A stretch of 64,000 nt of DNA, from IMG/VR virus record IMGVR_UViG_3300044645_001661; one strand, given 5' to 3'. The DNA comes from a virus. Taxonomy: Duplodnaviria > Caudoviricetes. This document shows, piece by piece, positions 7,968 to 53,896 of the stretch. Both the position numbers and the translations under genes were made by a program. A model generated the notes under the pieces. It did no database searches and was not told where the DNA came from. It saw only the letters and a program-made list of their open reading frames with translations. How positions within the stretch are numbered: the stretch's first letter is position 1; the number at the start of each line of letters is the position of its first letter.

Positions 7968-7980
7968 AAAGTGGCACAAT

Positions 7981-8006
7981 GATCGTCTAACAGGCGATCT
8001 TTTTTT
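7981..8006 (+). terminator. Terminator-like hairpin after gp46
   Basis: GATCGTCT-AAC-AGGCGATC plus T7. Confidence 0.7.
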
Positions 8007-22571: not shown

Positions 22572-23948
22572 ATGGAAAGTGTTGAACTTACAGTTTTAAA
22601 AAATTTAATATTTAATGAAGACTATTCTCGAAAAGTAATACCTTTTATAAATCTAGAATATTTTGAAGATAATTCCCAAAAAATTATTTTTGAAGAAACT
22701 GTAAAATTTATTTTAAAATATAATTCTCAAATTACAACAGAATCTCTTTTAATTGAAATATCTAATAGAAAAGATATAAATGAAAGTGATATTAAATCTT
22801 TAACTTCTTTAATTAATTCATTCGATTATCAACCATCCGATCAAAAGTGGTTAATTGACATCACTGAAAAATGGTGTAGAGATCGTGCCATTTATTTGGC
22901 TTTGATGGAATCAATTTATATTGCTGATGGTAAAGATGAAAAGAAGAACCGAGATGCTATTCCTTCAATTTTATCTGACGCTTTAGCAGTATCTTTTGAT
23001 AATAATATTGGTCATGATTATCTATTAAATTATGAAGAACGATATGATTATTATCATAGGAAAGAAGATAAAATAGAGTTTGATTTAGAATATTTTAATA
23101 AAATTACTAAAGGAGGACTCCCCAATAAAACTTTGAATATTGCTTTGGCAGGAACTGGTGTTGGTAAATCTCTTTTTATGTGTCATGTGGCATCTTCGGT
23201 TTTAGTTCAAGGTAAAAATGTGTTGTACATTACTCTTGAAATGGCAGAAGAAAAAATTGCCGAAAGAATTGATGCTAATTTATTGAATGTTCCTATTCAA
23301 CAATTGTCAGAATTGCCAAAAGCAATGTTTGAAAGTAAAGTTAATACACTTGCAAATAAGACACAAGGATCTTTAATCATTAAAGAGTATCCAACTGCTT
23401 CTGCACATTCTGGTCACTTCAAGGCACTTCTTAATGAACTTGCTCTTAAGAAATCATTTAGACCTGATATTATTTTTATTGACTACCTTAATATTTGTGC
23501 TTCCTCTAGGCATAAGGCAAATAGCTCTGTCAATTCTTATTCGTATATTAAGTCAATTGCAGAAGAACTTCGCGGTTTGGCAGTGGAATTCAATGTTCCC
23601 ATTGTCTCTGCTACCCAGACTACCCGCAGTGGTTATGGCAACTCTGATGTTGAACTTACTGATACTAGTGAGTCCTTTGGTCTCCCTGCTACTGCTGATC
23701 TTATGTTTGCCCTTATTAGCACTGAAGAGTTGGAGAATTTAGGTCAAATTATGGTTAAACAATTGAAGAATCGTTATAATGATCCAACAATTTATAAGCG
23801 GTTTATTGTTGGTATTGATAGGGCAAAAATGAGATTGTATGATTGTGAACAATCTGCTCAAAATGATATCGTTGATAATACTGAGTATTCAGAATCTAAT
23901 GAAGATAAAACATTAAAAAAAGAAAAATTTAATGGGTTTAAATTTTAA
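22572..23948 (+). CDS. gp41: Replicative helicase
   Basis: AGTGVGKS, ITLEMAE, IDYLNIC, ESFGLPATAD, KQLKNRY. Confidence 0.97.
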   Translation: MESVELTVLKNLIFNEDYSRKVIPFINLEYFEDNSQKIIFEETVKFILKYNSQITTESLLIEISNRKDINESDIKSLTSLINSFDYQPSDQKWLIDITEKWCRDRAIYLALMESIYIADGKDEKKNRDAIPSILSDALAVSFDNNIGHDYLLNYEERYDYYHRKEDKIEFDLEYFNKITKGGLPNKTLNIALAGTGVGKSLFMCHVASSVLVQGKNVLYITLEMAEEKIAERIDANLLNVPIQQLSELPKAMFESKVNTLANKTQGSLIIKEYPTASAHSGHFKALLNELALKKSFRPDIIFIDYLNICASSRHKANSSVNSYSYIKSIAEELRGLAVEFNVPIVSATQTTRSGYGNSDVELTDTSESFGLPATADLMFALISTEELENLGQIMVKQLKNRYNDPTIYKRFIVGIDRAKMRLYDCEQSAQNDIVDNTEYSESNEDKTLKKEKFNGFKF

Positions 23949-23993
23949 TATTGTTTGGTAAAGAATTATATGTTCTTTACCTTTTTTATTACC

Positions 23994-24001
23994 TATAAAT
24001 A
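23994..24001 (+). promoter_or_regulatory. T4-type late promoter
   Basis: Exact TATAAATA upstream of the first island gene. Confidence 0.75.
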
Positions 24002-24022: not shown

Positions 24023-25105
24023 TTGATGAAAAAATTATTTAAAATATTGACAAGTGAAAGAGTTGAATATAATAAAAAAAGTATAAAAATTTTTGATATG
24101 TTGAGATATTCATCCCATATTAGTAATATTTTGGAAAGTGACAAAAATAATTATATTAAAAATATGTGTTTATTTTTGGGAAAAAAAATAAGTAATAATA
24201 CAATCTTTTTTATTGATGATGAGAAATTTGAGCAGCAATACGAAAAACTTGAAGTATTTTTTGAGTTTATAAAAAGAATAGATGCTAAAAATAAAAATAT
24301 AATTTATATTGTAAAAACACAAATATTTGCAGACTATTTTGAAAAGTATGGAATAAAAAATTATATATTTGAACCATTATTGGAAGTTATTAATTTTTAT
24401 TATGGGTCTTTCAGAATAAGAAAATCTTTAGTAGGTGATAAAATAAAAGATGTATCATTTTGTTCATTGAATGGTACAAAAAATCAAGTTAGAGAATTTC
24501 TATTGTATAGATTAAATGATTATAATTTGTTACCTGAGGGATATGTTACTGCATGTGGACAATTTTTTCTCGATTTAAATGGTGAAGTCAAAAACCATAT
24601 ATTTGAAGATAAATTTTTTGATAAATTTTATTATGATGAAGGTCATAAATATTATCAAGATAAAAATTTAGTAAATATTCTTTATATTGATAAAAATATT
24701 CCAGGAAATATTTTTTTAACTGTGGAGTCATTTAATTACGATAAAATAGAAGAATCATTAAGACCACTATATACTGAAAAAACTTCTACTCCATTTTTAA
24801 CAAAAAGATTGCCTTTAATTATTGGATATATGAATATTATTGAAAATCTTAAAATGGATGGGTTTGATATGTTTGATGATATAATTGATTATGAATATGA
24901 TAAAATTGATCACATGGACTATCAAAAAAAAGTTGATCTTTGTATAAAAAATAATTCACATATTCTTAAACATAATAATTTTTATGATAATCCAGAAATT
25001 GATGAGAGATTGGAATACAATAAAAAACATTATAATGTGTGGGTAGAAAATAAAATTTTAAACTTTGAATCTAATATAGAAGAAAAATTAAAGTTATTTG
25101 TTTAG
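24023..25105 (+). CDS. Hypothetical protein, possibly glycosyltransferase-like
   Basis: YTEKTSTPF...PLIIG...GFDMFDDIIDY resembles GT10-like segments; weak. Confidence 0.4.
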   Translation: MMKKLFKILTSERVEYNKKSIKIFDMLRYSSHISNILESDKNNYIKNMCLFLGKKISNNTIFFIDDEKFEQQYEKLEVFFEFIKRIDAKNKNIIYIVKTQIFADYFEKYGIKNYIFEPLLEVINFYYGSFRIRKSLVGDKIKDVSFCSLNGTKNQVREFLLYRLNDYNLLPEGYVTACGQFFLDLNGEVKNHIFEDKFFDKFYYDEGHKYYQDKNLVNILYIDKNIPGNIFLTVESFNYDKIEESLRPLYTEKTSTPFLTKRLPLIIGYMNIIENLKMDGFDMFDDIIDYEYDKIDHMDYQKKVDLCIKNNSHILKHNNFYDNPEIDERLEYNKKHYNVWVENKILNFESNIEEKLKLFV

Positions 25106-25112
25106 ATATATT

Positions 25113-25643
25113 ATGGAAGATAAATTTATTACTGGTAAAATAGATAGTAATTTAATTGGGGATTTTAAAAATATAGATTATCCTGGAAGAAGGCAATTTA
25201 GGGATGATGAAACTGTTGAGAGGTGGAAAAATCTTGGGCATTTGTATGTAAATTATACTGGATTTATTCGTGAAGAATATAGAGGTCTACCTGATTGGTG
25301 TAATTTAGTACTTGATGAAATAAAAAATCAATTAAAAATTTATAATATTTCTTGCTCTCTATATCGTATGCCTCCAGGAACAATAATGCCAGAACATAAA
25401 GATGCATATTTGAATTATAAAAAAATATTTAAAATAGATGATGTGAATAATATTTGTAGAGTATTAGTATTTTTGGATGATTGGAAATCTGGGCATTATT
25501 TTGAATTGAATGATAATCCAGTGATACAATGGAAATCTGGAGATTACTACATGTGGACTGGAGAAACACCACACATTGCTGCTAATATTGGAAGAGAAAA
25601 TAGATATACAATGCAGATAACTGGAACTATTGATCATGGATGA
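25113..25643 (+). CDS. Fe(II)/2-oxoglutarate-type oxygenase (cupin fold)
   Basis: MPEHKD (HxD), PHIAAN (distal His), RYTMQITG. Confidence 0.7.
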   Translation: MEDKFITGKIDSNLIGDFKNIDYPGRRQFRDDETVERWKNLGHLYVNYTGFIREEYRGLPDWCNLVLDEIKNQLKIYNISCSLYRMPPGTIMPEHKDAYLNYKKIFKIDDVNNICRVLVFLDDWKSGHYFELNDNPVIQWKSGDYYMWTGETPHIAANIGRENRYTMQITGTIDHG

Positions 25644-26361
25644 AAGAAGAGCCGTTATAGATGAGTTAGTAAAAAATTATCCTAATTACTGCTCAACCTT
25701 TACATTTAAATTGAAAAAAGGTATACCTGGAGAAGTAATACACAAAGAGGGTTTTGTTAACTGTTATATGGATGTAAAAAATTATCTTATTTACATGCAT
25801 ATTGATAAGTGTGCGAGTACATCAATAACTACTGCACTAAGAGATCAAAAACCATATTTTGTAAAAATGGATGATATTCCAAAATCTGAAGAATTTGCTA
25901 AACTTTTGGTCCAAAAAGAATATACATTTTTTACTGCAGTTAGAGATCCAATTTCTAGATGGATGTCTGGATTGAATGAATTTATGTGTAGATATAGACC
26001 TCCAATTAATTATGTTATTGAACAACTTAAAAATAAAAAATATGTTTTTGATGAGCATACCGCACCACAACATTTGTTTTTAAGATTATGTTTAGAAAAT
26101 AATGGAAATCTTATTTGTGTAAAAATGGATTCTGATATGGAATTTAAAATTAATGATGTTATTAGGTGTTCTTTAAAAAATGAATTTATGCGTGAAAAAT
26201 ATATCCCACTTAAAATTCCACAATTAAGGAGTTCAAAATATTTTATACCAAATTATATAAGTGTATGTAAAAAAATGTATGAAGTTTATGTAAAAAATGA
26301 TCCTGAAGAATTTAATAAATTATATAAAATTGATTTTGATTTATACAATAATGCACTATGA
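25636..26361 (+). CDS. Sulfotransferase (Sulfotransfer_2-like)
   Basis: MHIDKCASTS (5'-PSB-like), VRDPISRWMSG (3'-PB-like), DEHTAPQ. Confidence 0.75.
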   Translation: MDERRAVIDELVKNYPNYCSTFTFKLKKGIPGEVIHKEGFVNCYMDVKNYLIYMHIDKCASTSITTALRDQKPYFVKMDDIPKSEEFAKLLVQKEYTFFTAVRDPISRWMSGLNEFMCRYRPPINYVIEQLKNKKYVFDEHTAPQHLFLRLCLENNGNLICVKMDSDMEFKINDVIRCSLKNEFMREKYIPLKIPQLRSSKYFIPNYISVCKKMYEVYVKNDPEEFNKLYKIDFDLYNNAL

Positions 26362-26960
26362 ATAGTTTCGATACCGTAAAGAAATTAGAAGAATTAATAG
26401 CAAACTTTTTTGGATCACCATATGCAGTTGCAACTGATTGTTGTACCCATGCTATAGAATTGTGTTTAAGATATGAAAAGTATGACAATATTGAAATTCC
26501 AGAACAAACGTACATTTCAATTCCATTTACTGCAGAAAAACTTAATTTAAAATGGTCTTGGAAAAAAAATTATACCTGGCATGATCATTATTACATTTGG
26601 AATACAAATATAATAGATGCGGCTGTTTTTTGGGAACGGAATGGATATATACCAAAAACATATATGTGTTTAAGTTTTCAGTATAAAAAACATTTAAATC
26701 TTGGTAAAGGTGGCATGATACTATTAGACAATTATGATGCTTATACTGATCTTAAAAAAATGGTTTATGATGGTAGAGAATCTGATAAACCATGGGGAGA
26801 ACAGAACATTAAAACAATAGGATATCACTACTACATGACACCAGAAACTGCTGAAACTGGTATACATAAGTTTGAAGAAGTATCTTCTATGAAACCAAAA
26901 AGATGGAGTTATCTTAATTATCCATTTTTACCTAGTATGGATGTATTTAAAAAATTATGA
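26358..26960 (+). CDS. Short DegT/DnrJ/EryC1/StrS-like PLP enzyme
   Basis: CTHAIELCL, IIDAA, SFQYKKHL, GKGGMI; only 200 aa. Confidence 0.75.
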   Translation: MNSFDTVKKLEELIANFFGSPYAVATDCCTHAIELCLRYEKYDNIEIPEQTYISIPFTAEKLNLKWSWKKNYTWHDHYYIWNTNIIDAAVFWERNGYIPKTYMCLSFQYKKHLNLGKGGMILLDNYDAYTDLKKMVYDGRESDKPWGEQNIKTIGYHYYMTPETAETGIHKFEEVSSMKPKRWSYLNYPFLPSMDVFKKL

Positions 26961-27835
26961 ATTTAGATAATAAATTAAAAGGATTACCTCCAATATTTTA
27001 CCTAAATCTGGATCACAGAACAGATAGAAAGGAATATATGGAAGGGCAATTTAAAGAAAGAGGTATAACAGATTATACTAGAATATCAGCATCTCGATTT
27101 GCTACATCTAAAATTGATGAATGGGGGCATAGATTAGATTTGATGTTATTGGCTAAATCTGATGCATCTATCGTAATGAATCAGTTTACTACAATAATTG
27201 ATTGGTATAATTCTGGTATATCAGAAACTTGTATAATAATGCAAGATGATCTCAGTTTAGAATTAATTGATTATTGGATGTTTGATTGGGAAACAATTGT
27301 AAAAAGTTTGCCATATAATTGGGATTGTGTTCAATTTTATCATTGTCATAATGAAGAAATGCGTATGCACTTACATAAAAGAAGTTATGGAAGCTCATCT
27401 GCTGCTTGTTATATGATTAATAGATGGTACGCAGAAAAATTAATTAAATTGCACTTGCAACCAGATAATTCATTCAAACTTAAAAATAATTTAAAAGATG
27501 TAAGTGTTCCTAAAGAGTGTTATAGTAGTGATGATTTTCTATTATATCAAATTGGTGTAAGTTATAGTTTACCAATTTTGTGTTTGAATCAAAGACTTTC
27601 TCAAACTCCCGATAACAAATTGCAGGAAGATGAAACTGATGAAGACTATGATCCAGTAATAAGCATATATCATAATAAAATTCATGATATACTTGCTAGT
27701 ACATGTGTGAGAAGATGGTGGGAGAATGAAAGTTCAAAATATAAAGCGGAAGATATTTTAAGTTACGGTGGTTCAATCCATAGAAAAATGATCGTTCCTA
27801 TTCCTAAATTTAACAGAAAGGTACTTCCAAAATGA
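26957..27835 (+). CDS. GT25-like glycosyltransferase, copy 1
   Basis: FYLNLDHRTDR, IIMQDD, LPYNWDCVQ. Confidence 0.8.
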   Translation: MNLDNKLKGLPPIFYLNLDHRTDRKEYMEGQFKERGITDYTRISASRFATSKIDEWGHRLDLMLLAKSDASIVMNQFTTIIDWYNSGISETCIIMQDDLSLELIDYWMFDWETIVKSLPYNWDCVQFYHCHNEEMRMHLHKRSYGSSSAACYMINRWYAEKLIKLHLQPDNSFKLKNNLKDVSVPKECYSSDDFLLYQIGVSYSLPILCLNQRLSQTPDNKLQEDETDEDYDPVISIYHNKIHDILASTCVRRWWENESSKYKAEDILSYGGSIHRKMIVPIPKFNRKVLPK

Positions 27836-28695
27836 ATATAGAATTAAATAAATTAAAAACAATAGGATTTCCCAAAGTTTTTTATTTGAATGCGGATTCT
27901 AGACCAGATAGGGGAAATTATATAGAATCATGTTTTGAAAAATGGGGAATAGAACGATACGAAAGAATTCCTACAAGTAGATATACTCCAACCAATTATC
28001 ATGAATGGGAAGATTTAATTTTAGATGATAATATTTTACAAACTCCAGAGGAAATATCTAAAACTATCAATCATTTAAAAACAATAATTGATTGGTATGA
28101 TAATGGGGATGAAGAATATTGTATAATAATGGATGATATTATTGATATTAACTCAATAGATACTTGGATGTTTGATTGGGAAACTCTATATAAAAATCTT
28201 CCATATAATTGGGATTGTGTGCATCTATTCTTTTATAGTAATAGAACTATTAATATGCACCTAAAACCAAAAGACGATGATACTAAGGGTGTGTATTGTT
28301 ATATGATAACACGACAATTTGCTAAAAAAATTAAACAACTTCATTATGTTGATGATAAGTTTAAATTTTTTGTTAATACTAGAAATTTAAAACTACCAGA
28401 ATATAAGTATGGATCTCTAGAATCATTTTTATTTGATTTGGGTATAACCTATACATTGCCCGTATTTTATTTGAGTCTAAAATATTTTGGTGAACCTAAA
28501 GAATTGGAAGATATTTTATGTAAACTTTCTTCGGAATCTATTGAGTTTTGGTGGAAAATAAAGTCTAAAGAATTTTCCATGCAAGAATTTTTCTCATACA
28601 ATAAAAGATATGATTGGAAAATGGAAGTTCTTTTTGACGTAAAAGAAAAACAAGTATATATGGATAAAGTTGAAAAAATAATGTTATGGATTTAA
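27832..28695 (+). CDS. GT25-like glycosyltransferase, copy 2
   Basis: FYLNADSRPDR, IIMDDIID, LPYNWDCVH. Confidence 0.75.
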   Translation: MNIELNKLKTIGFPKVFYLNADSRPDRGNYIESCFEKWGIERYERIPTSRYTPTNYHEWEDLILDDNILQTPEEISKTINHLKTIIDWYDNGDEEYCIIMDDIIDINSIDTWMFDWETLYKNLPYNWDCVHLFFYSNRTINMHLKPKDDDTKGVYCYMITRQFAKKIKQLHYVDDKFKFFVNTRNLKLPEYKYGSLESFLFDLGITYTLPVFYLSLKYFGEPKELEDILCKLSSESIEFWWKIKSKEFSMQEFFSYNKRYDWKMEVLFDVKEKQVYMDKVEKIMLWI

Positions 28696-29540
28696 AGAAC
28701 AAATTAAAAAATATGCCGAAAGTCTATTATTTTAATTTGGATAATAGAACTGATAGAAAAAAATATATGGAAAAACAATTTGATAGGTGGGGCATAACCT
28801 ATCAAAGAATATCTGGAACAAAATACTTAGCATCAAAAAATAAAGAATGGAATCATTTAATTATTGATGTAAAAAATTATAAGTTATTAGTTCCAATTGC
28901 AGCTAATGCAATATCTCATTTGGAATTTTTGAAGAAATGGTATGAAGAAACAACAGATCCATATGTTCTGTTGATGGAAGATGATTATGATTTAAACTTG
29001 ATACAATATTGGCATTTTGATTGGGATTACTTGATGTCAAGATTGCCATATGATTGGGATTGCTTGCAACTAGGATTTGAAAATCCAATAGGGATACCTT
29101 TTTATCTTCATCCGATGGCAACCTCTCATGATTTTGGTCCATGTTTACTTAGTAGAGATTATGTTTATAAATTAATCTCATTACACTGTGTCGGTGATAA
29201 GTACAAGTTAATTAATACAATATCCAATGGTGCCTGGAATGCAGAAGAAGGTGGATGTGGTTCTGGAACGGTAGATTATTTTATATGCCACTGTGGAAAA
29301 ACCTATTCTATACCTTTAATAACAATAAATCCAACATTCGGTAGTTTCGAAAATAATAGTCTACTTCAAAAACTCTATAGAAATAATGGGGATGTAATGG
29401 CTAGAAATACATATTATTATTGGTGGCAAAATGAAAGAGATAAATTTACCTTAGATGATTTTTTTACTTATGGTAAAAAATATGACCGTAAGATGATATT
29501 GGATCAAAATAAATATGGAAACTATAGACCTAGAAAATAA
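28686..29540 (+). CDS. GT25-like glycosyltransferase, copy 3
   Basis: YYFNLDNRTDR, ISH, LMEDD, LPYDWDCLQLG. Confidence 0.82.
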   Translation: MDLKNKLKNMPKVYYFNLDNRTDRKKYMEKQFDRWGITYQRISGTKYLASKNKEWNHLIIDVKNYKLLVPIAANAISHLEFLKKWYEETTDPYVLLMEDDYDLNLIQYWHFDWDYLMSRLPYDWDCLQLGFENPIGIPFYLHPMATSHDFGPCLLSRDYVYKLISLHCVGDKYKLINTISNGAWNAEEGGCGSGTVDYFICHCGKTYSIPLITINPTFGSFENNSLLQKLYRNNGDVMARNTYYYWWQNERDKFTLDDFFTYGKKYDRKMILDQNKYGNYRPRK

Positions 29541-30420
29541 ATTAAGGGGATTCCCCCATGTATATTATTTTAATCTCGATCAAAAAACTGATCGTAAAAA
29601 GTACATGGAAACCCAATTTGATCGTTGGGGTATAGAATATACTAGAATGTCATCTAACATATATTCTATATGGAATTATGACGATTGGACTACAAATAAG
29701 GTAACTGGTGACAAAAGTGATACCGATCAAAGACTTTATGCCCCAGCAATGATGCATTTTGAGTTATTTAAAAGGTGGTTACATGATACAGACGAAGAAT
29801 ATATTCTTGTAATGGAAGATGATTATGATTTAAGTTTAATCGAATATTGGCATTTTGATTGGAATTATTTGATGTCTAAATTGCCTTATGATTGGGATTG
29901 TATTCAATTGGGATTTGAGACTTCAAATGTAATATCATTTTACCTTCATCCAGTAAAAGAAGATTATTCATTTGGACCATGTTTATTTAAAAGAGAATAT
30001 GTAGAAAAACTTTTAAGACTTCATTCTGAAGGATTTAAATATAGATTTGATTTTAACATTTCCAATTGTCATTGGAGAGATAGAAGAAATTATAAAAATG
30101 CTGCAGGTTCTTTAGAATATTTTATGTGTCAATCTGGAAGAACGTATTCAATTCCTTTAATCGCTTTAAATCCTTATTTTAGTTTTTGGTATTATAAGGA
30201 TAAATGGATACCAAAGTCTTACTTTCAAATGTGCTATGATTCTTATTATGATTGGTGGCAAAATGATAGAGACAAATTCACTTTAGATGATTTTTTTACT
30301 TATGGAAAGGTAAATGATAAAATTATGGAAAGAAATCTAGAATATTGTGACACTAAATATTTTGAAGAAAAGACCAAAGTATGTAGAGAAAAATTTTTGA
30401 AAGAATATGGATTTAAGTAA
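29515..30420 (+). CDS. GT25-like glycosyltransferase, copy 4
   Basis: YYFNLDQKTDR, VMEDD, LPYDWDCIQLG. Confidence 0.8.
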   Translation: METIDLENKLRGFPHVYYFNLDQKTDRKKYMETQFDRWGIEYTRMSSNIYSIWNYDDWTTNKVTGDKSDTDQRLYAPAMMHFELFKRWLHDTDEEYILVMEDDYDLSLIEYWHFDWNYLMSKLPYDWDCIQLGFETSNVISFYLHPVKEDYSFGPCLFKREYVEKLLRLHSEGFKYRFDFNISNCHWRDRRNYKNAAGSLEYFMCQSGRTYSIPLIALNPYFSFWYYKDKWIPKSYFQMCYDSYYDWWQNDRDKFTLDDFFTYGKVNDKIMERNLEYCDTKYFEEKTKVCREKFLKEYGFK

Positions 30421-31207
30421 TAAGTTATTCGGAATACCAAAAGTATATTATTTTAATTATGATGAGCATAAAAATAGAAATTACCATATGGACAGAAATC
30501 TTGGTAATTTGAAAGTTGCTAATTATGAAAAAGTTTCAGCATCAAAATATACTTCTAAAAATTATGAAGATTGGAAAAATTTGATTATTGATGTTGAGAA
30601 TTATAAATTAACTCCAAATATTGCTGGATATGCAATTACTGTATTGGAATTTTTAAAAAGATGGTTAGAAGAAACTGATGAACCAGAATTAATTATAACA
30701 AAAGATACTATTGATTTTGATTTAATTGAATACTGGAAATTTGATTGGAATTATTTAAAATCCAGACTTCCTTATGATTGGGATTGTATTCAACTTGGAT
30801 TTGAAAATTCTCAGTATATACCATTTTATTTACATCCAATACTTCCTTCTAGTACTTTTGGTCCATCACTTCTCAATAGACACTATGTTAAAAAAATAGT
30901 TAAATTGCATTGTGTTGGAGATCAATATAAGTTGAATAATTATATTGCAAATATGTATTTCAGTGGACAATCTGGAACAGTTGATTATTTTATTGGACAT
31001 AATGGCAATACATACTCAATGCCACTATTCCCTAATAAACCAGAATTTTTTGACAAGAATACTAAAAAGTATGTTTTAGTTTACATTTGTAAAAATGCAT
31101 ATCATGAATGGTGGAAGCGAGAAAGTGGCAAATTTAATTTGGATGAGATATTTACTTATGGAAAATATAATGATATTGGAATGGTAAAAAAACTTCGTAA
31201 AAAATAA
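30407..31207 (+). CDS. GT25-like glycosyltransferase, copy 5 (degenerate motifs)
   Basis: YYFNYDEHKNR, TKDT in place of MEDD, LPYDWDCIQLG. Confidence 0.7.
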   Translation: MDLSNKLFGIPKVYYFNYDEHKNRNYHMDRNLGNLKVANYEKVSASKYTSKNYEDWKNLIIDVENYKLTPNIAGYAITVLEFLKRWLEETDEPELIITKDTIDFDLIEYWKFDWNYLKSRLPYDWDCIQLGFENSQYIPFYLHPILPSSTFGPSLLNRHYVKKIVKLHCVGDQYKLNNYIANMYFSGQSGTVDYFIGHNGNTYSMPLFPNKPEFFDKNTKKYVLVYICKNAYHEWWKRESGKFNLDEIFTYGKYNDIGMVKKLRKK

Positions 31208-31215
31208 TTAAAATT

Positions 31216-32034
31216 ATGAACATTAATTTGTCAAACAAACTAAAAGGACTGCCACACATCTATTATGTAAATTTGGATAATAGATCTGATAGAAAAAAAT
31301 ATATGGAGTCCCAGTTTGATTTTTGGAGAATAAAAGATTACACTAGAGTATCTTCTTCAAAATACTTAGCATCTGAATCTGAATCTTGGGCAAATAAAGT
31401 TATTGATGGGAGCATAAAAAATCTATCATCATATGTTGTTGGTAATGCAATAACACACTTAGAACTTTTAAAAGATTGGGTTAATAATTCTAGTGATGAA
31501 TATGTCATTTTAATGGAAGATGATTATGATTTAAACTTGATACAATATTGGCATTTTGATTGGGATTACTTGATGTCAAGATTGCCATATGATTGGGATT
31601 GTATTCAATTGGGATTTGAATCAAAAGAATTTATTCCATTCTTTTTACATCCTAAATTGAGACATAGTTATTTTGGTCCTATTATGATTACTAGAGAGTA
31701 TGCTAAAAAAATATTGCGATTGCATTGTGTCGGTGAAGACAAATATAGTTTAGATAAATTAATTGCTGATTATAATTTTAAAGTTTGTTCTACTTCTGTA
31801 GATTACTTTATGGGACATACTGGCAGAACGTACTCTATTCCATTAATAACTACAAATGTTGATCTAGGTAGCACTGAAAGTGATATACAAATAGAAAGAA
31901 GACATCATGTTAAATCTAGAGCCGCATACTATTATTGGTGGATGAAGAGAAGTATGAAGTATAATCTAGATGAATTTTTTACCTATGGAAAACCAAATGA
32001 TCAAGAAATGGTTATTAGTACGGTTGACTATTAG
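31216..32034 (+). CDS. GT25-like glycosyltransferase, copy 6
   Basis: YYVNLDNRSDR, ITH, LMEDD, LPYDWDCIQLG. Confidence 0.82.
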   Translation: MNINLSNKLKGLPHIYYVNLDNRSDRKKYMESQFDFWRIKDYTRVSSSKYLASESESWANKVIDGSIKNLSSYVVGNAITHLELLKDWVNNSSDEYVILMEDDYDLNLIQYWHFDWDYLMSRLPYDWDCIQLGFESKEFIPFFLHPKLRHSYFGPIMITREYAKKILRLHCVGEDKYSLDKLIADYNFKVCSTSVDYFMGHTGRTYSIPLITTNVDLGSTESDIQIERRHHVKSRAAYYYWWMKRSMKYNLDEFFTYGKPNDQEMVISTVDY

Positions 32035-32052
32035 ATAAAAAATGATTATAAT
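32024..32052 (+). promoter_or_regulatory. Sigma70-type promoter for amidinotransferase and dehydrogenase
   Basis: TTGACT-17 nt-TATAAT. Confidence 0.75.
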
Positions 32053-32064
32053 GTCTTTATTTAA

Positions 32065-33039
32065 ATGTATAGTACAAATGAGTGGGGAAAATTAAAAAAA
32101 ATTATAGTCGGTGTGGCTGACTATGCAGTAGTTCCTCCAGTTGATAAAAGTTTAAGGACAATTAACTATGCGGATTTAAAAGATACCTCCACAGTAAAAG
32201 TTGGACCATATCCAGATCAAGTAATTCAAGAAGCAAATGAAGATTTAGAAATACTTGTAAATTTTTTAAAATCTCAAGATGTAGAAGTTTTGAGACCAAA
32301 AAGAGAAAAAACTGATTACTACAACTATTGCCCAAGAGATTGTGTATTTGTTCATGGTGAAGTTGCATTAGCAACACCCATGCCATTAAGGTCTAGACTA
32401 GGTAATTGGAGATCTTATTCACACCATCTAACCGATGTGGTTGAAATGCCATGTTGCTATTTTGATGATCTCTATAATGAAGAATGTGTTGGTGATCCAG
32501 ATATTCTTGCATTAACTGAAATAACACCAGCATTTGATGCTGCTAACATAATTCGGGCAAACAATGAGATTTTGTATCTTGTATCAAATAGTGGAAATAT
32601 TGCAGGAGCAAAATATTTACAATCACTTTTAGATGAACACTACAATGGAGAAGTTCAAGTAAATCTTCTTCAAAATGTTTATTCATATGTTCATATTGAT
32701 ACTACTATTGCATTTTTGAGAGAAGGTCTTTTACTGGCAAATCCAAGTAGAATAAAAGATAAAGATGATCTACCAGAACCATTTAACGAGTGGGAAATAA
32801 TTTGGTGCCCAGAACCTGTAGACACTGGTTACTATCCAGGTTATAATCATGCATCACCTTGGTCCAATATGAATTTGCTTAGTGTTAGTCATGAGTTAGT
32901 TGTTTTGGAAGAACATCAACATCCTACTAGAAAGGTATTGGAAAGATATGGGATTGAGTGTGCTATGCTTCCTATGAGGCAGCAAAGAACATTGAGTGGT
33001 GGATTCCATTGCGTAACTTTAGATCTTGAGAGGGAATGA
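32065..33039 (+). CDS. Amidinotransferase (glycine/inosamine-phosphate amidinotransferase family)
   Basis: NEWGKLKKIIVG, CPRD, FDAAN, HIDTT, GGFHCVTLD. Confidence 0.88.
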   Translation: MYSTNEWGKLKKIIVGVADYAVVPPVDKSLRTINYADLKDTSTVKVGPYPDQVIQEANEDLEILVNFLKSQDVEVLRPKREKTDYYNYCPRDCVFVHGEVALATPMPLRSRLGNWRSYSHHLTDVVEMPCCYFDDLYNEECVGDPDILALTEITPAFDAANIIRANNEILYLVSNSGNIAGAKYLQSLLDEHYNGEVQVNLLQNVYSYVHIDTTIAFLREGLLLANPSRIKDKDDLPEPFNEWEIIWCPEPVDTGYYPGYNHASPWSNMNLLSVSHELVVLEEHQHPTRKVLERYGIECAMLPMRQQRTLSGGFHCVTLDLERE

Positions 33040-34259
33040 TTATGGAAATTGGATTTATTGGTTTGGGTAAATTGGGTATGGCATGTGCCGAAGAAATTTT
33101 TTTGCAAGGGCACAATGTATACGGATATGATATTTCACCTAAAGATAGTGATCTAATAAAAGTTAAAAATAATATCAAAGAAGTTGTAGAATTGAGTGAT
33201 ATTGTCTTTATTGCTGTTCCAACTCCCCATGATCCAGAATATGATGGAAGTAAACCATGCATGGATCTTCAACCAAAAGATTTTAGTTATGATATTGTAA
33301 AGGAATGTTTGGTTGAAGCAAACAAATATATGAATAAGAATCAACTACTTGTGTTGATTTCTACAGTTCTTCCTGGAACAACTAGAACACAGTTTTGTAA
33401 TTTGGTTACTAATACACGATTTGTTTATAATCCGTATTTAATTGCAATGGGATCTGTTGCTTGGGATATGGTTAATCCAGAAATGGTAATGATTGGAACC
33501 GAAGATGGGAAAACAAATGGTGATGCTAAACAATTAATTGATTTTTATAAAACAATAATGCAGAATGATCCTGCATATGTTGTTGGGACTTGGGATGAAT
33601 GTGAATGTATTAAAGTATTCTATAATACGTTTATTAGTAATAAAATTAGTTTTGTCAACATGATTCAAGATGTTGCTGAACGTTCTCATAATATTAATGT
33701 TGATGTTGTTACTAGTGCTCTTTGCTTAGGTGCTTCTAGAATTATTAGTACACATTATATGAAGGCAGGTATGGGTGATGGTGGTGCCTGTCATCCTAGA
33801 GATAACATTGCCCTTCGCTATCTTGCAAAAAAACTAGATTTGGGATATGACCTTTTTGAAGGAATTATGCGTTCTAGAGAAGTTCAGGCAAAAAATCTTG
33901 CGAAAAAATTAGTTGAACTTGCTAATGATGAATTGCCAATTGTTATTCATGGCAAAGCATACAAACCAAAAGTTCCTTATATTGATGGGAGTTATAGTAT
34001 TTTAGTTGGTCATTACTGTACGGAGATGGGCAAACCTCCAATCTATGTTGACAAATATACTGGAGACGAATATACTCCTAATGGTCCTGCAGTATTTCTT
34101 CTCGCACATAGTGCATCTACAACTTATTGGCATGATGGAAGTGATGACGAACTTTATTGTGATATTCCAGAAGGAAGTATTGTTTTGGATCCTTGGAGAA
34201 AGTTTAAATCGGACAATATTACTGTAATTCACTATGGTAATACCCGATTCAATCCTTGA
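33036..34259 (+). CDS. UDP-glucose/GDP-mannose 6-dehydrogenase family protein
   Basis: IGFIGLGKLG Rossmann motif, FIAVPTP, STVLPGTT, YNP, GDGGACHPRD. Confidence 0.9.
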   Translation: MIMEIGFIGLGKLGMACAEEIFLQGHNVYGYDISPKDSDLIKVKNNIKEVVELSDIVFIAVPTPHDPEYDGSKPCMDLQPKDFSYDIVKECLVEANKYMNKNQLLVLISTVLPGTTRTQFCNLVTNTRFVYNPYLIAMGSVAWDMVNPEMVMIGTEDGKTNGDAKQLIDFYKTIMQNDPAYVVGTWDECECIKVFYNTFISNKISFVNMIQDVAERSHNINVDVVTSALCLGASRIISTHYMKAGMGDGGACHPRDNIALRYLAKKLDLGYDLFEGIMRSREVQAKNLAKKLVELANDELPIVIHGKAYKPKVPYIDGSYSILVGHYCTEMGKPPIYVDKYTGDEYTPNGPAVFLLAHSASTTYWHDGSDDELYCDIPEGSIVLDPWRKFKSDNITVIHYGNTRFNP

Positions 34260-34306: not shown

Positions 34307-34717
34307 ATGAAAATCATTGATACTAAAAAATATATTGAATTCGTTCGACAAACAACTAGTCCTGCTAGCAGTGATTTTGCACAACTTCTTGCTCGTATGA
34401 CTGAACTCGAAGCAACTCATGATGCTGATGTTCCTCGTCTTTTGACTGCTGCTTTTGGTATCAGTGCAGAAGCAGGTGAGTTTACTGAAGTTGTAAAAAA
34501 AATCTTCCTTCAAGGAAAACCTTATAATGAAGAAAATGTTTTTCACCTGAAACGTGAACTTGGTGATATTTGTTGGTATCTTGCACAAGCTTGTATGGCA
34601 CTTGACACTAACTTTGAAGAAGTTCTTCAAATGAATTTTGAAAAACTGAGTGCTCGTTATCCTGAAGGTTCTTTTGATGTTTATCGATCTGAAAATCGAG
34701 TAGAAGGAGATCTTTGA
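34307..34717 (+). CDS. mazG: MazG-like NTP pyrophosphohydrolase
   Basis: AEAGEFTEVVKK, KRELGDICWY, KLSARYP. Confidence 0.92.
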   Translation: MKIIDTKKYIEFVRQTTSPASSDFAQLLARMTELEATHDADVPRLLTAAFGISAEAGEFTEVVKKIFLQGKPYNEENVFHLKRELGDICWYLAQACMALDTNFEEVLQMNFEKLSARYPEGSFDVYRSENRVEGDL

Positions 34718-35471: not shown

Positions 35472-35481
35472 TTGTAGATGT

Positions 35482-35552
35482 GGGGGATTAGTTTAGTGGT
35501 AAAACGGGTGCTTTGCAAGCATCAATCACCAGTTCGACTCTGGTATTCTCCA
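35482..35552 (+). tRNA. tRNA-Ala(UGC)
   Basis: Cloverleaf; G3:U70 pair; anticodon loop TT-TGC-AA; GTTCGACTC. Confidence 0.92.
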
Positions 35553-35555
35553 TAA

Positions 35556-35635
35556 GCCCAAGTGGTGAAATTGGTAAACACGCATGACTTAGGATCATGT
35601 GCTTCGGCTTGGAGGTTCGAGTCCTCTCTTGGGCA
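35556..35635 (+). tRNA. tRNA-Leu(UAG)
   Basis: GCCCAAG/CTTGGGC acceptor stem; CT-TAG-GA loop; variable arm. Confidence 0.93.
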
Positions 35636-35667
35636 CTAAATATTTCAAATGCAGTTAAAATTCCAAA

Positions 35668-50746: not shown

Positions 50747-50828
50747 GGGTAGGTGTCCGAGTGGTTAATGGAGGTGGACTGTAAATCCACTGGCTCTGCC
50801 TACGGGGGTTCAAATCCCTCCCTGCCCA
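50747..50828 (+). tRNA. tRNA-Tyr(GUA)
   Basis: GGGTAGG/CCTGCCC acceptor; CT-GTA-AA loop; variable arm. Confidence 0.93.
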
Positions 50829-50830
50829 CC

Positions 50831-50859
50831 TTGACAATCAAATCCCGATCTGATATGAT
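50831..50859 (+). promoter_or_regulatory. Sigma70-type promoter for the pseudoknot, tRNA-Arg and tRNA-Asn transcript
   Basis: TTGACA-17 nt-TATGAT. Confidence 0.8.
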
Positions 50860-50862
50860 ATG

Positions 50863-50930
50863 GGAGTTGAGAGATCAACTGCGGCACTCCCCTTTGGTAG
50901 GTTCAGGAGTGGCGGCGATAGGAACCTACT
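50863..50930 (+). ncRNA. Candidate H-type pseudoknot leader RNA
   Basis: GAGA-tetraloop hairpin plus interleaved perfect 6-bp and 8-bp helices. Confidence 0.55.
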
Positions 50931-50934
50931 TTAT

Positions 50935-51008
50935 GTCTCAGTAGCTCAGTGGAACAGAGCAACCGCCTTCTAAGCGGTCGGTCGTTGGTTCGAATCCAAC
51001 CTGAGACG
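50935..51008 (+). tRNA. tRNA-Arg(UCU)
   Basis: GTCTCAG/CTGAGAC acceptor; CT-TCT-AA loop. Confidence 0.95.
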
Positions 51009-51033
51009 CTTGGAGATTTATTCTCCAAATTAT

Positions 51034-51105
51034 TCCCCTATAGCTCAACGGCAGAGCAGAGAGCTGTTAACTCTAAGGTTCCTCGTTCGAATCGAGGTGG
51101 GGGAG
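51034..51105 (+). tRNA. tRNA-Asn(GUU)
   Basis: TCCCCTA/TGGGGGA acceptor; CT-GTT-AA loop. Confidence 0.95.
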
Positions 51106-51362
51106 TCGGAAGGACTGGAAATGTCTGGGACTTCCTCTAAATCCTAACTTTTGTTAGGTCGGGGACTTGATCGCCCCCGTTCGTAACAGAAAACGCTGGA
51201 CAAACTTTGGAGGTATAAACCCTTGCAAGGTCTCCCACCCCATTTGGGTGCCTTCCTGAGAACAGGAAAAATAAGGTTTGGTGTTTTCTTTTATCACTGC
51301 CCTCTAATGCAGTGAAAATCGCAGAAAGTGTCTTCTGCGGGTGGTGGTCACTCACTACCCAT
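51106..51362 (+). ncRNA. Candidate multi-hairpin ncRNA immediately 3' of tRNA-Asn
   Basis: About nine consecutive hairpins; GC-richer than flanks; no credible + strand ORF. Confidence 0.6.
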
Positions 51363-51515
51363 TAACCTCTGGTATTCTATTGCTAAGGATATAGGTGTCA
51401 TAATGATTAATATTTTTAAAAAAGTTTATTTGAAGATAAAAGAATATATTGACTTTAAAAAAGTCTCTAAAAAATGTAAGGAAGAGGATCCATACATTTA
51501 TAAATAAAACTAAAA

Positions 51516-52298: not shown

Positions 52299-52348
52299 AC
52301 CAATAAATAGTTGACAAAATAATTTGTCTCTGTTAAAATAAAATCATC

Positions 52349-52824: not shown

Positions 52825-52864
52825 ATCTTAACTAAATAAGAAAATAAAGTTTTCTTATTAACTT

Positions 52865-53793: not shown

Positions 53794-53794
53794 A

Positions 53795-53866: not shown

Positions 53867-53896
53867 CTCACTATTCGCTATTTGCGAATAGCAAAT

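Follow-up and report, generated by a model that had tools for sequence, protein, structure and literature searches.

Organisation of the island

The window, a 64,000-nt stretch of DNA, derives from a freshwater T4-like cyanophage. Between positions 24023 and 34259 the ORF listing of the window places twelve ORFs on the + strand, with gp41 before them and mazG after. The ORFs are co-directional and, as the earlier note had described, contiguous and mostly overlapping: of the eleven junctions between them, nine show overlaps of 4–26 nt and two have gaps, one of 8 nt and one of 30 nt. The island and its flanks comprise the following features.

22572–23948, + strand: gp41 primase-helicase, upstream core flank (DnaB_C, 73.6 bits)
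23957–23981, + strand: terminator-like hairpin with a trailing T-run, 3' of gp41
23994–24001, + strand: TATAAATA, motif resembling a T4-type late promoter, 24 nt ahead of the ATG of ORF1
24026–25105, + strand: ORF1 (o1), 359 aa, possible GT-B glycosyltransferase (fold neighbours only)
25098–25643, + strand: o2, small cupin-type Fe(II)/2OG oxygenase (Asp_Arg_Hydrox, 19.9 bits, below cut-off)
25630–26361, + strand: o3, PAPS-type sulfotransferase (Sulfotransfer_2, 25 bits against a Pfam cut-off of 22)
26358–26960, + strand: o4, mini-DegT, sugar-aminotransferase PLP domain of 200 aa (PF01041, DegT, 52.8 bits)
26957–27835, + strand: GT25-like paralogue a (phrog_2835, 1.5e-40; weak GT25 match)
27832–28695, + strand: GT25-like paralogue b (phrog_2835, 2e-36)
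28686–29540, + strand: GT25-like paralogue c (PF01755, 29.1 bits against a cut-off of 24; MEDDYD motif)
29515–30420, + strand: GT25-like paralogue d, present in some type-A loci only
30407–31207, + strand: GT25-like paralogue e (phrog_2835, 9.5e-34; KDT in the DxD region)
31216–32034, + strand: GT25-like paralogue f (Pfam and paralogue alignment)
32065–33039, + strand: o11, StrB1-type L-arginine amidinotransferase, AT (1BWD, StrB1, E 4.7e-59, full length)
33036–34259, + strand: o12, UDP-glucose/GDP-mannose dehydrogenase-family protein, UGD (PF00984, PF03721)
34307–34717, + strand: MazG, downstream core flank (PF03819)

S-SRM01, the nearest isolate, has the MazG pyrophosphatase gene directly after gp41 with no block between the two, and the 10-kb block is therefore an insertion. 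Gp41 itself is 76–95% identical across 31 related loci. The island has a G+C content of 28.4% against 33.4% for the remainder of the window, with ORF1 at 20.8%, in line with its earlier description as richer in A+T than the core. However, core genes at 2–8 kb have G+C contents of approximately 27–30%, so that low G+C is not specific to the island, and the AT and UGD genes within it stand at 34%.

Among type-A loci (one of two architectures described below) that retain gp41, the hairpin was found only in the lineage of the window, that is, the window, L003 and L004; in most of the others the 2OG oxygenase gene overlaps the end of gp41. The late-promoter-like motif occurs six times in the window, always on the + strand, and five of the six copies lie 9–35 nt upstream of an ORF start. 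Judged by its sequence, TATAAATA may be a working promoter.

Predicted enzymes of the island

Eleven of the twelve enzyme assignments made previously were confirmed. The exception, ORF1, had been called GT-like; it is only weakly GT-B-like and yielded no match in Pfam, PHROG or NCBIfam. Six homologues were found in total, and among 80 viral loci the gene occurs in L003 and L004 only. The AF2 model of ORF1 (pLDDT 64) gave no structural match in the PDB, while all ten of its ESM-Atlas fold neighbours were GT-B glycosyltransferases with TM scores of 0.27–0.47 (nine of them at 0.41–0.47). ORF1 is a lineage-specific add-on and possibly a GT-B glycosyltransferase.

Translation of o2 and o3 likely begins at the ATG codons at 25113 and 25636, respectively. 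The o2 product keeps the H-x-D...H triad (HKD...H...R motif), and its structure neighbours in the Atlas included 2OG-FeII_Oxy_3 proteins (TM 0.70–0.73) and bacterial fusions of a sulfotransferase with an Asp_Arg_Hydrox domain, which mirror the o2–o3 gene pair. Both PAPS-binding motifs are present in o3 (5'-PSB-like HIDKCASTS and 3'-PB-like RDPISRWMS). The o12 product consists of the N-terminal and central UDPG_MGDP_dh domains, retains the catalytic Cys (GGACHPRD) and matched the UGD 3VTF at E 5e-23 and phrog_9148 at 4e-95. In the window the UGD start and the AT stop share 4 nt; the two genes also adjoin each other in a distant metagenomic lineage of unconfirmed origin and in a MAG of the Pseudobdellovibrionaceae.

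The assignment of o4 as a DegT-like PLP enzyme stood, with the qualification that it is a truncated form of 200 aa, which lacks the C-terminal domain and approximately 50 residues of the PLP domain. Across 34 mini-DegT sequences sharing 51–81% identity, the PLP lysine (SFxxxK), the Asp of IIDAA, GG and DGR are all invariant; the invariant positions are D27, T30, H31, D87, SFQ..K111, GG and GYHYYMTPE. The AF2 model (pLDDT 93.7) was compared with the PDB using Foldseek, and all 50 of the matches listed were PLP enzymes of the DegT/AHBA-synthase family, nearly all of them sugar aminotransferases (E about 1e-9 to 1e-7, TMq 0.62–0.73), including GDP-perosamine synthase, ArnB, DesI, WbpE and BtrR. 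On sequence grounds o4 is a conserved mini form of DegT keeping all PLP motifs and a putative aminotransferase.

The AT scored 203 bits against StrB1, far above the 102–112 bits (E about 1e-28 to 1e-31) of the glycine and small-amine enzymes AGAT, HsvA and SxtG. StrB1 takes a cyclitol phosphate, rather than a sugar nucleotide, as its substrate. Residues D92, D158, H210 and D212 are invariant in the window AT and 81 locus homologues, and C316 is present in 81 of these 82 sequences. The conservation of catalytic residues in both families supports the previously proposed logic of a DegT-type enzyme followed by an amidinotransferase. Homologues of the AT form 4867 protein clusters at E≤1e-10.

The GT25-like paralogues

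The products of o5–o10, paralogues a–f, show 25–38% identity to the first copy. Pfam GT25 matches were weak, one of the six exceeding the cut-off, and the three paralogues scanned matched phrog_2835 'glucosyltransferase' at 1e-34 to 1e-40. The nearest Atlas clusters of paralogue c, the only copy searched, were GT25 (score 0.98). The order a-b-c-(d)-e-f, with distinct orthologues of each copy, is kept over about 35 loci: paralogue a has a syntenic orthologue of 58–67% identity in type-A loci, and paralogue b evolves fastest, its orthologues being 36–46% identical. The five or six glycosyltransferases are probably non-redundant. Paralogues c and f share an exact tract of 89 nt, located in f at 31513–31601.

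A profile of 43 glycosyltransferase sequences gave one match in the PDB, Mimivirus R655, a GLT25D1-like suspected collagen (protein) glycosyltransferase (PMC9546862). This match, together with the inclusion of collagen hydroxylysine galactosyltransferases in the GT25 family and the resemblance of o2 to Asp/Asn beta-hydroxylase cupins, raises the alternative of a collagen-type protein modification, in which the 2OG oxygenase would hydroxylate residues of a phage or host protein, the GT25-like enzymes would add ordinary sugars and the AT would act on a protein- or sugar-linked amine. The late-type motif preceding the island in the window lineage and the detection in purified S-SCSM2R virions of ORF266, a further AT, and of ORF269, a 2OG oxygenase (PMC12801897), also favour it. 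Nevertheless, no collagen-like G-X-Y run was found anywhere in the window, most relatives have a cassette that overlaps gp41 and is not preceded by the late motif, and mini-DegT, UGD and the GDP-mannose 4,6-dehydratase Gmd, the partners most tightly linked to the AT, would be left without a role. We regard this explanation as quite unlikely.

Distribution and architecture of the cassette

The synteny search proposed in the earlier note was strongly positive. The AT is present in at least 181 IMG/VR contigs of uncultured phages. Of the 80 viral loci fetched from these AT-bearing contigs, 77 have GT25-like genes alongside it, 75 have mini-DegT and 68 have the small 2OG oxygenase, and co-occurrence is therefore not confined to this genome. 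The cassette comes in two stable architectures, A and B, in addition to minimal DegT–AT pairs; type-B cassettes sit elsewhere in the genome than the type-A site, and ORF302–310 of isolate S-SCSM2R are a type-B copy. The gene set is therefore a widespread, conserved, co-inherited and modular cyanophage unit, but only in its core of mini-DegT and AT with the 2OG oxygenase and GT25-like genes. The sulfotransferase (33 loci, type A without exception) and UGD are confined to one architecture, and ORF1 is an add-on.

This linkage bears on whether the AT could be an auxiliary metabolic gene acting by itself in the metabolism of arginine or guanidino compounds (guanidinoacetate or similar), with glycan neighbours that are unrelated occupants of a hyperplastic region. 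Comparison of loci with S-SRM01 does identify the gp41–mazG interval as a site of variable insertions, and IMG labels homologues 'glycine amidinotransferase' or 'dimethylarginine dimethylaminohydrolase'. AGAT is, however, only distantly related to the AT, which almost never occurs without mini-DegT in either architecture, in metagenomic lineages of unconfirmed origin or in bacteria, and its start and stop codons overlap neighbouring genes. A stand-alone role is thus highly improbable.

The position of the island within the replication module, from gp41 to mazG, and its translational coupling to gp41 in most relatives would suit a DNA hypermodification, with a hydroxylated base being glycosylated and amidinated to evade restriction. 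Base J and TET-linked glycosylation of hmC likewise combine a 2OG oxygenase with glycosyltransferases. Glucosylation of DNA has been speculated upon (PMC12801897). Against this, a ThyA-type hydroxymethylase is absent from the complete S-SCSM2R genome and five partial cassette-bearing genomes, o2 is a cupin of the Asp_Arg_Hydrox type, not TET/JBP, the type-B cassettes lie outside this site, and the bacterial homologues are housed in polysaccharide clusters. No Tet_JBP match was obtained in the same genomes, although a TET control was silent too. Modification of DNA is considered very unlikely.

Linkage to nucleotide-sugar genes

L030 and L037 carry a true Gmd gene (379 bits) that runs into the start of the AT, and other variants of the cassette add radical-SAM (B12- and SPASM-type), SDR and carbamoyltransferase genes. 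SDR, UGD and mini-DegT adjoin ATs of 43–49% identity on other metagenomic contigs of unconfirmed origin. In bacteria, the AT homologues lie in surface-polysaccharide clusters with GT2 or O-antigen-ligase genes: the order in the Pseudobdellovibrionaceae MAG is AT-UGD-SDR-miniDegT-GT2-GT2, and in a betaproteobacterial MAG Wzy_C is followed by AT-GT2-4x NodZ-like GT-rSAM-DegT-SDR.

Inside the island there is no dedicated enzyme for keto formation of the recognised kinds, WbpB-like or 4,6-dehydratase. Possible partners are located in a second glycan island.

54735–56594, + strand: two genes within the second glycan island, a radical-SAM gene (54735–55547) and Gmd (55593–56594)

The radical-SAM protein is 43–54% identical to the copy beside mini-DegT and AT in 11 loci (ten viral contigs and isolate S-SCSM2R, L001), and Gmd lies 21 kb from the island. 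From the linkage in relatives, it is possible that both serve the island in this genome.

These neighbours also bear on the proposal that the cassette product is a soluble secondary metabolite of the aminocyclitol or aminoglycoside-like kind (a pseudo-oligosaccharide), with no macromolecule being decorated. The closest solved relative of the AT, StrB1, is an inosamine-phosphate amidinotransferase, and DegT/StsC with StrB1 constitutes the logic of the streptidine pathway. The carbamoyltransferase and the B12- and SPASM-type radical-SAM enzymes of the variants are typical of aminoglycoside tailoring, and the AT of Campylobacter phages sits with a 'BtrN'-annotated radical-SAM gene and a short aminotransferase. 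This was the reading given for S-SCSM2R, whose mini-DegT, AT and radical-SAM genes were interpreted as 'antibiotic synthesis genes never reported in cyanophage' (PMC12801897); the combination, of which the earlier note knew no characterised phage example, had thus been partly annotated. Yet the cassette genes scanned matched no family of inositol-phosphate synthase, 2-deoxy-scyllo-inosose synthase, kinase, phosphatase or exporter. Moreover, the genes linked to the AT encode the nucleotide-sugar enzymes Gmd, UGD and SDR, bacterial homologues accompany GT2, Wzy_C and NodZ-like surface-glycan genes, and a diffusible antibiotic would be of little gain to a lytic phage. Synthesis of a free metabolite is considered unlikely.

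Proposed pathway

From the gene identities, catalytic residues, synteny and nucleotide-sugar linkage we infer a substrate, product and acceptor: the cassette would synthesise an N-amidino (guanidino) amino-sugar that is built into a defined glycan, a reading that we hold to be moderately probable. To our knowledge, such guanidino-sugar glycan chemistry is undescribed for any virus. The overall route would run from nucleotide-sugar to keto-sugar, amino-sugar and guanidino-sugar, with Arg as the donor. A nucleotide-sugar would be oxidised to a keto-sugar, the candidates within the island being the UGD-family enzyme (giving a uronate) and the small 2OG oxygenase; Gmd, an SDR or a radical-SAM enzyme may fill the same role in other variants. 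The keto group would be transaminated by mini-DegT, and the AT would transfer the amidino group of L-arginine to the new amine via its Cys-His-Asp centre. In the present architecture, hydroxylation by the 2OG oxygenase and sulfation by the PAPS sulfotransferase may optionally follow, and the five or six GT25-like GT-A enzymes would assemble the sugars.

No transmembrane helix was predicted in any island protein, and the island genes include none for polymerising or exporting a glycan. The polymer envisaged earlier is for these reasons a less likely product than a defined oligosaccharide on an existing acceptor. Given soluble enzymes throughout and no island gene for export or polymerisation, the acceptor would have to be accessible from the cytoplasm; the host LPS/LOS core and lipid-linked intermediates are the likeliest candidates, with virion proteins of the phage as the alternative. 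A glycan charged with guanidino, sulfate and uronate groups may be the outcome.

Several observations count against the pathway. Mini-DegT is truncated and its activity hence putative, Gmd is not within the island, and the closest relative of the AT, StrB1, uses a cyclitol phosphate. Pfam support for GT25 is marginal in five of the six paralogues and paralogue e is without DxD. The sole solved relative of the glycosyltransferases, R655, is a suspected protein glycosyltransferase (PMC9546862).

Comparison with known systems

The streptidine steps of Streptomyces griseus (StsC/StrS and StrB1) are alike in that a DegT-family PLP enzyme converts a keto group to an amine and an Arg-dependent Cys-His-Asp enzyme converts the amine to a guanidine. 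In contrast, the phage context is one of UGD, Gmd, SDR and GT25-like genes, not of inositol enzymes, kinases and phosphatases, the aminotransferase is a single domain of 200 aa, and the genes are carried by a lytic phage instead of an antibiotic producer. In the Wbp pathway of the Pseudomonas aeruginosa O-antigen, 2,3-diamino-uronic acids are formed through the UGD-family enzyme WbpA, WbpB and the DegT-type WbpE, and WbpG adds an acetamidino group. Here too UGD-family and DegT-type enzymes would lead to a surface glycan containing a uronic sugar that is charged, rich in nitrogen and substituted with an amidine-type group. The acetamidino group is, however, introduced by an asparagine-synthase-like amidotransferase, whereas amidino transfer by a StrB1-type enzyme would yield a genuine guanidino group, and the island has no WbpB- or WbpD-type genes.

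Among viruses, the fibril and collagen glycosyltransferases R655, R699 and L230 of Mimivirus and the capsid glycans of chloroviruses likewise involve GT25/Fringe-type GT-A enzymes, sometimes with 2OG hydroxylases, but these are giant viruses of eukaryotes with no amidinotransferase, and sequence likeness is limited to the N-terminal 100 or so residues. The hyperplastic regions of the large T4-like cyanophages P-SSM2, S-SCSM1 and S-SCSM2R contain accessory LPS/glycan clusters of glycosyltransferase and sugar-nucleotide genes, with a presumed role in remodelling the host surface. Their genes have been described one at a time, and the conserved cassette and its spread went unrecognised. Campylobacter phages CP220 and CPt10 possess an interchangeable, hypervariable, AT-centred module of radical-SAM and 'glycine amidinotransferase' genes (PMC2853527), likewise uncharacterised, which differs in lacking UGD and in having five radical-SAM genes in place of the 2OG oxygenases and GT25 arrays. 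The AT of this module is 24% identical to that of the window over its full length, with oxidising enzymes and a short aminotransferase encoded nearby.

Genomic context and layout of the island

The window belongs to a T4-like cyanomyovirus, carrying genes for gp23, UvsY, UvsW, gp46/47-like proteins, gp43, UvsX, gp41 and RNR in addition to a tRNA block. The closest isolate was the freshwater Synechococcus phage S-SRM01, with 79% nucleotide identity across gp43-uvsX-gp41, and at least 20 lake-water metagenome runs contained 0.71-0.99 of the window's sampled 31-letter words, whereas the window was found in no RNA run. The glycan island and its flanks are arranged as follows.

22572-23948: gp41, upstream flank of the island
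24023-34259, + strand: island of 12 ORFs (o1-o12) between gp41 and mazG
24026-25105, + strand: ORF1 (o1), 20.8% GC, GC3 0.13, six homologues known
34307-34717: mazG, downstream flank of the island

The earlier description of twelve contiguous, mostly overlapping ORFs between gp41 and mazG was borne out, all twelve lying on the + strand with overlaps at 9 of 11 junctions. Minus-strand ORFs within the island were nested and short, and neither an Rfam family nor a tRNA was found inside 24023-34259. Since a MazG pyrophosphatase directly follows gp41 in S-SRM01, the island is an insertion. A megablast search of 50,697 phage records with the island as query gave no match.

The island had also been described as visibly richer in A+T than the core. 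Its GC content is lower than that of the remainder of the window (28.4% vs 33.4%), with ORF1 lower still, but the core genes at 2001-8000 (uvsY, uvsW, a gp55-like sigma factor and gp47/gp46-like genes) exhibited 27-30% GC, about equal to the island, and the amidinotransferase and dehydrogenase genes showed no A+T enrichment. Composition alone therefore proves little, and A+T-richness was rejected as proof of foreign origin.

Amidinotransferase and short aminotransferase

Residues 5-323 of o11 aligned with residues 8-339 of StrB1 (1BWD) at E 4.7e-59, representing full-length homology to pentein-fold amidinotransferases; matches to AGAT, HsvA and SxtG were far weaker (1e-28 to 1e-31). In an alignment of o11 with 81 homologues from other loci, D92 (CPRD), D158 (FDAAN), and H210 and D212 (HID) were invariant, while C316, the Cys of GGFHC, was kept in 81 of the 82 sequences. 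The catalytic Cys-His-Asp and the arginine-binding Asp of the StrB1/AGAT family are all present in o11. The full-length alignment and the retention of these residues uphold the assignment as a StrB1-type amidinotransferase (AT) and identify o11, by sequence, as an intact arginine-type enzyme for which arginine-dependent amidino transfer is predicted.

The product of o4, proposed as a DegT-like PLP enzyme, is 200 amino acids long (relatives, 195-234). Its DegT profile match was confined to positions 166-245 together with a piece at the N-terminus. The protein lacks approximately 50 internal residues as well as the C-terminal domain, and it departs from the canonical two-domain DegT architecture of about 360-400 amino acids. 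Being short and lacking the C-terminal domain, o4 is therefore a mini variant (mini-DegT) and not a standard member of the family. Among 34 phage homologues with 51-81% identity, the motifs TDxCTH, IIDAA, SFxxxK, GG, DGR and GYHYYMTPE were invariant, as were K111 (SFQYKK) and D87 (IIDAA, the Asp for the pyridine nitrogen). In alignment with 4ZWV, K111 falls in the corresponding SFQ..KH stretch and, from the SFxxxK motif of the DegT family, is presumably the catalytic PLP Schiff-base lysine. An AlphaFold (AF2) model of o4 had a pLDDT of 93.7, and all 50 of the 50 Foldseek matches listed were DegT/AHBA-synthase-family PLP enzymes, nearly all of them sugar aminotransferases (E 1e-9 to 1e-7, TMq 0.62-0.73), including GDP-perosamine synthase, ArnB, CalS13, DesI, BtrR, WlaRG and WbpE. 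By model and structural matches o4 has the fold-type-I large domain of sugar aminotransferases. The proposed identity is correct as to PLP motifs and fold, and requires amendment in that the enzyme is a truncated form; at 200 amino acids it would be the smallest sugar aminotransferase known.

Oxygenase, sulfotransferase and dehydrogenase

The small cupin o2 has the HxD...H facial triad in its sequence. Its Pfam score for Asp_Arg_Hydrox (19.9) was under the cut-off of 22.6, and its Atlas model (pTM 0.88) matched 2OG-FeII_Oxy_3 clusters at TM 0.70-0.73, so that both the triad and the double-stranded beta-helix fold of Fe(II)/2OG oxygenases are present. For o3, the Sulfotransfer_2 score exceeded the cut-off (25 bits vs 22), and both putative PAPS motifs, which we take to be the 5'-PSB and 3'-PB, were read in the translation. 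The oxygenase and sulfotransferase calls of the earlier note are thus sound. Among the Atlas neighbours of o2 there is, in addition, a large family of bacterial proteins in which a sulfotransferase is fused to Asp_Arg_Hydrox, and this fusion argues that o2 and o3 act jointly, hydroxylation preceding sulfation.

The product of o12 combines PF03721 (NAD-binding) and PF00984 (central) domains with a catalytic Cys in GGACHPRD and matched solved UGD structures at E 5e-23 and below, placing it in the UGD family, as expected of the nucleotide-sugar dehydrogenase first proposed. PF03720, the C-terminal UDP-binding domain, gave no match, and o12 did not reach equivalog or subfamily cut-offs (TIGR03026, 144.7 vs 189.8); the assignment consequently extends to the family and not to a particular sugar nucleotide.

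Glycosyltransferase array and ORF1

Paralogues b-f of the o5-o10 array, read previously as six GT25s, are 25-38% identical to the first (a). The 'glucosyltransferase' family phrog_2835 matched the three paralogues scanned (a, b and e) at 1e-34 to 1e-40, and Atlas GT25 and Fringe/GT25 clusters scored 0.96-0.98 with paralogue c. Agreement with Pfam GT25 (PF01755) was marginal, only c passing the cut-off (29.1 vs 24), with a, d and f beneath it and b and e unmatched. The six are described here as GT25-like. At the position of the DxD-type motif, c, d and f have EDD, a has QDD and b has DDI, but the motif is lost in e (KDT); D97 (numbering of a) is invariant in all six.

An exact identity of 89 nt was observed between c (28974-29062) and f (31513-31601), spanning the catalytic stretch MEDDYD...DWDC of proteins otherwise approximately 54% identical. 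Such a tract in genes otherwise diverged points to recent gene conversion inside the array.

A profile of 43 glycosyltransferase sequences had a single solved match, Mimivirus R655, a GLT25D1-like putative collagen glycosyltransferase (PMC9546862). Collagen-type protein modification would fit the combination of GT25 and hydroxylase, yet it leaves no role for the mini-DegT, UGD or Gmd enzymes, and a window-wide search yielded no collagen-like G-X-Y repeats.

ORF1 had been called GT-like. Pfam, PHROGs and NCBIfam yielded no family for it, and Foldseek of its poor AF2 model against the PDB returned nothing; its fold neighbours, at low TM, were exclusively GT-B glycosyltransferases, and ORF1 is at most a candidate glycosyltransferase. 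Among related loci ORF1 occurs only in the two closest relatives of the window.

No initiating phosphoglycosyltransferase, flippase or ABC exporter, polymerase or ligase family was found among the o1-o12 products, nor any membrane helix (maximum KD19 ≤1.37), and the island differs in this from an autonomous O-antigen or capsule cluster.

Distribution and architecture of the cassette

The amidinotransferase has homologues with 63-96% identity on 181 IMG/VR contigs, and 4867 protein clusters match it at E≤1e-10. Of 80 viral loci searched by tblastn, 77 carry GT25-like genes, 75 the mini-DegT, 68 the 2OG oxygenase, 34 UGD and 33 the sulfotransferase. Two principal orders were recognised. In type A, that of the window, gp41 is followed by 2OG, sulfotransferase, mini-DegT, GT a-b-c-(d)-e-f, AT, UGD and mazG, and every glycosyltransferase has its own orthologue in constant order. 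Type B, which includes ORF301-310 of isolate S-SCSM2R, comprises a 400-aa 2OG protein, 3-4 GTs, mini-DegT, 2OG, AT, GT and often a NodU-type carbamoyltransferase. Minimal DegT-AT pairs occur at loci L073, L078 and L079, and at L030 and L037 the stop of a true GDP-mannose 4,6-dehydratase gene overlaps the AT start. Variant insertions encode SDR enzymes, three kinds of radical-SAM enzyme, a PhyH-like oxygenase and a GT47-like protein. Accessory clusters of 115, 136, 153, 167, 175, 305 and 365 aa gave no Pfam or PHROG match, and the 365-aa protein no PDB match.

On metagenomic contigs of unconfirmed origin, amidinotransferases of 43-49% identity are accompanied by genes for SDR, UGD (49% to o12), a 227-aa mini-DegT, o2-like oxygenases, radical-SAM enzymes and carbamoyltransferases. 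A close-relative scan of GTDB genomes using AT alone found nothing; with a 10-sequence alignment as query, seven bacterial loci were recovered. A Pseudobdellovibrionaceae MAG contig has the order rSAM-?-AT-UGD(52%)-SDR-miniDegT(222 aa)-GT2-GT2. In a betaproteobacterial MAG contig, a Wzy_C O-antigen-ligase gene is followed by AT, GT2 and four tandem NodZ-like GTs, and a cassette-type radical-SAM enzyme (52%), a full-length DegT and an SDR are also encoded; a Wzy_C gene occurred only in this bacterial counterpart, L092. Homologues of the genes in which the earlier note saw a candidate pathway for an amidino-/sulfo-sugar polymer thus clearly co-occur outside this genome, contrary to one of the outcomes that the note named as refuting it.

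An intact arginine-type amidinotransferase and a mini-DegT with an intact PLP site are inherited together, surrounded in phages as in bacteria by genes for nucleotide-sugar enzymes and glycosyltransferases, and the island is a real, conserved feature with a predicted product. This tight linkage to partner genes contradicts a role for the amidinotransferase as a stand-alone arginine AMG. Hypermodification of DNA would fit the position of the island adjoining gp41; against this, no ThyA-type hydroxymethylase or Tet_JBP enzyme was found in cassette-bearing genomes, of which only S-SCSM2R is complete and the others fragments, and for which the TET control was also silent.

Three further settings of AT-like genes were observed. 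Up to four paralogues share one contig in the ENA metagenome contigs L084-L086, a different and probably viral lineage with two o2-like oxygenases, a 227-aa mini-DegT, two UGD-family genes, SDR, methyltransferase and radical-SAM genes and no GT25 array. Elsewhere in S-SCSM2R (213353-216336), a second, divergent AT, ORF266, lies beside KdsA/KdsB and two 2OG oxygenases. In Campylobacter phage vB_CjeM_WX1 (109957-116963), a 24% identical AT has as neighbours a 262-aa aminotransferase and four or five radical-SAM genes, of which one carries the annotation BtrN. Campylobacter phages, with an amidinotransferase inside a radical-SAM module (PMC2853527), represent a distant analogue, and the WX1 module is possibly an anaerobic counterpart of that of cyanophages.

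Putative transcription signals

Two putative signals precede ORF1.

23957-23981: putative terminator, a hairpin followed by a T-run
23994, + strand: putative late-promoter motif TATAAATA

Copies of TATAAATA occur in the window at 23994, 34748, 40706, 47357, 51499 and 16416, all on the + strand and fewer than the shuffled expectation (6 vs 11.7). An ORF start follows five of the six at a distance of 9-35 nt, consistent with T4-type late promoters. The hairpin and motif are found only in the window lineage, where ORF1 arrived with them between gp41 and the cassette; an 'insulated late operon' was accordingly rejected as a property of the cassette. In most type A relatives the 2OG gene starts before gp41 ends, and the cassette is thus predicted to be normally co-transcribed with replication genes, the predicted late control in the window being a local novelty.

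Predicted product and acceptor

In the proposed pathway, a keto-sugar nucleotide would be aminated by mini-DegT and then amidinated by AT, yielding a guanidino sugar. In the island, UGD, the gene for which overlaps that of AT, would provide a uronate and the 2OG oxygenase may carry out oxidation, a step that Gmd, SDR or radical-SAM enzymes would perform in other variants. A hydroxyl would be added by o2 and then a sulfate by o3, and a fixed series of non-redundant glycosyltransferases would build a defined oligosaccharide. We tentatively propose, as a possibility rather than a probability, that T4-like cyanophages of marine and fresh waters produce a deoxy- or uronic sugar bearing a true guanidino (N-amidino) group by means of the 200-aa aminotransferase and StrB1-type amidinotransferase, followed by five or six viral glycosyltransferases in fixed line, and that the product is put on virions or the host outer membrane.

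We know of no true guanidino (N-amidino) deoxy- or uronic sugar in any natural glycan, and its occurrence would constitute new glycochemistry. The glycan would be permanently cationic, or zwitterionic with sulfate or uronate, altering adsorption, superinfection or grazing, and the chemistry is specific and testable, namely amidination of an amino sugar from arginine. It would work like that of StsC/StrB1 in streptidine synthesis, while in its layout the cassette is similar to the route by which Wbp enzymes make diamino-uronic acids with an amidine group. In genomic terms it falls among the 'LPS' islands of large cyanomyoviruses, and glycan islands of phages are commonly set aside as 'LPS genes'. 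New here are the conserved mini-DegT and StrB1-type core, its great abundance in aquatic phages and the predicted guanidino sugar; the cassette is very common, extending over marine and lake phages and thousands of metagenomic protein clusters.

One rival to a guanidino glycan is that the cassette makes a secondary metabolite, the published reading, in which its genes in S-SCSM2R are 'antibiotic synthesis genes' (PMC12801897). Cassette variants do contain aminoglycoside-like tailoring genes, but no cyclitol-forming, kinase or export genes were found among the cassette genes scanned, and the present analysis corrects that reading.

Since all the proteins are soluble and genes for export or polymerisation are lacking, the predicted glycan needs an acceptor accessible from the cytoplasm. 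The LPS core of the host, or lipid-linked intermediates, would agree with the bacterial O-antigen context. Phage proteins would agree with the resemblance to R655 and with the proteome of purified S-SCSM2R virions, in which the second amidinotransferase (ORF266) and a 2OG oxygenase (ORF269) were detected (PMC12801897). The identity of the acceptor would distinguish remodelling of the host surface from glycosylation of the phage's own particle, with consequences for grazing in aquatic systems as well as for host range and superinfection exclusion. The presence of the cassette in S-SCSM2R, culturable on Synechococcus WH7803, makes bench study directly feasible.

Second glycan island and tRNA genes

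A second glycan island lies at 54568-63235, headed by a wcaG RNA motif (RF01761, 103 bits, 54568-54668); none was found near AT cassettes in 8 loci. From approximately 54.7 kb it encodes radical-SAM, GDP-mannose 4,6-dehydratase, SDR (GDP-fucose-synthase-like), GT11, GT6, DUF7796, HAD and nucleotidyltransferase fusion, and GT4 proteins, the radical-SAM beside Gmd being a homologue of the cassette enzyme (43-54% identity). Taking GT11 as the alpha-1,2-fucosyltransferase family and GT6 as the ABO-type family, their combination with the GDP-fucose set suggests that this island may make a blood-group-like fucosylated epitope.

Eleven tRNA genes were predicted by ARAGORN at 50747-53970 and 35481-35636, including two adjacent tRNA-Ile(TAT). 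The long variable arm of the tRNA-Ser(TGA) at 52864-52952 probably explains its marginal Rfam score as tRNA-Sec (48.8 vs 47 bits).
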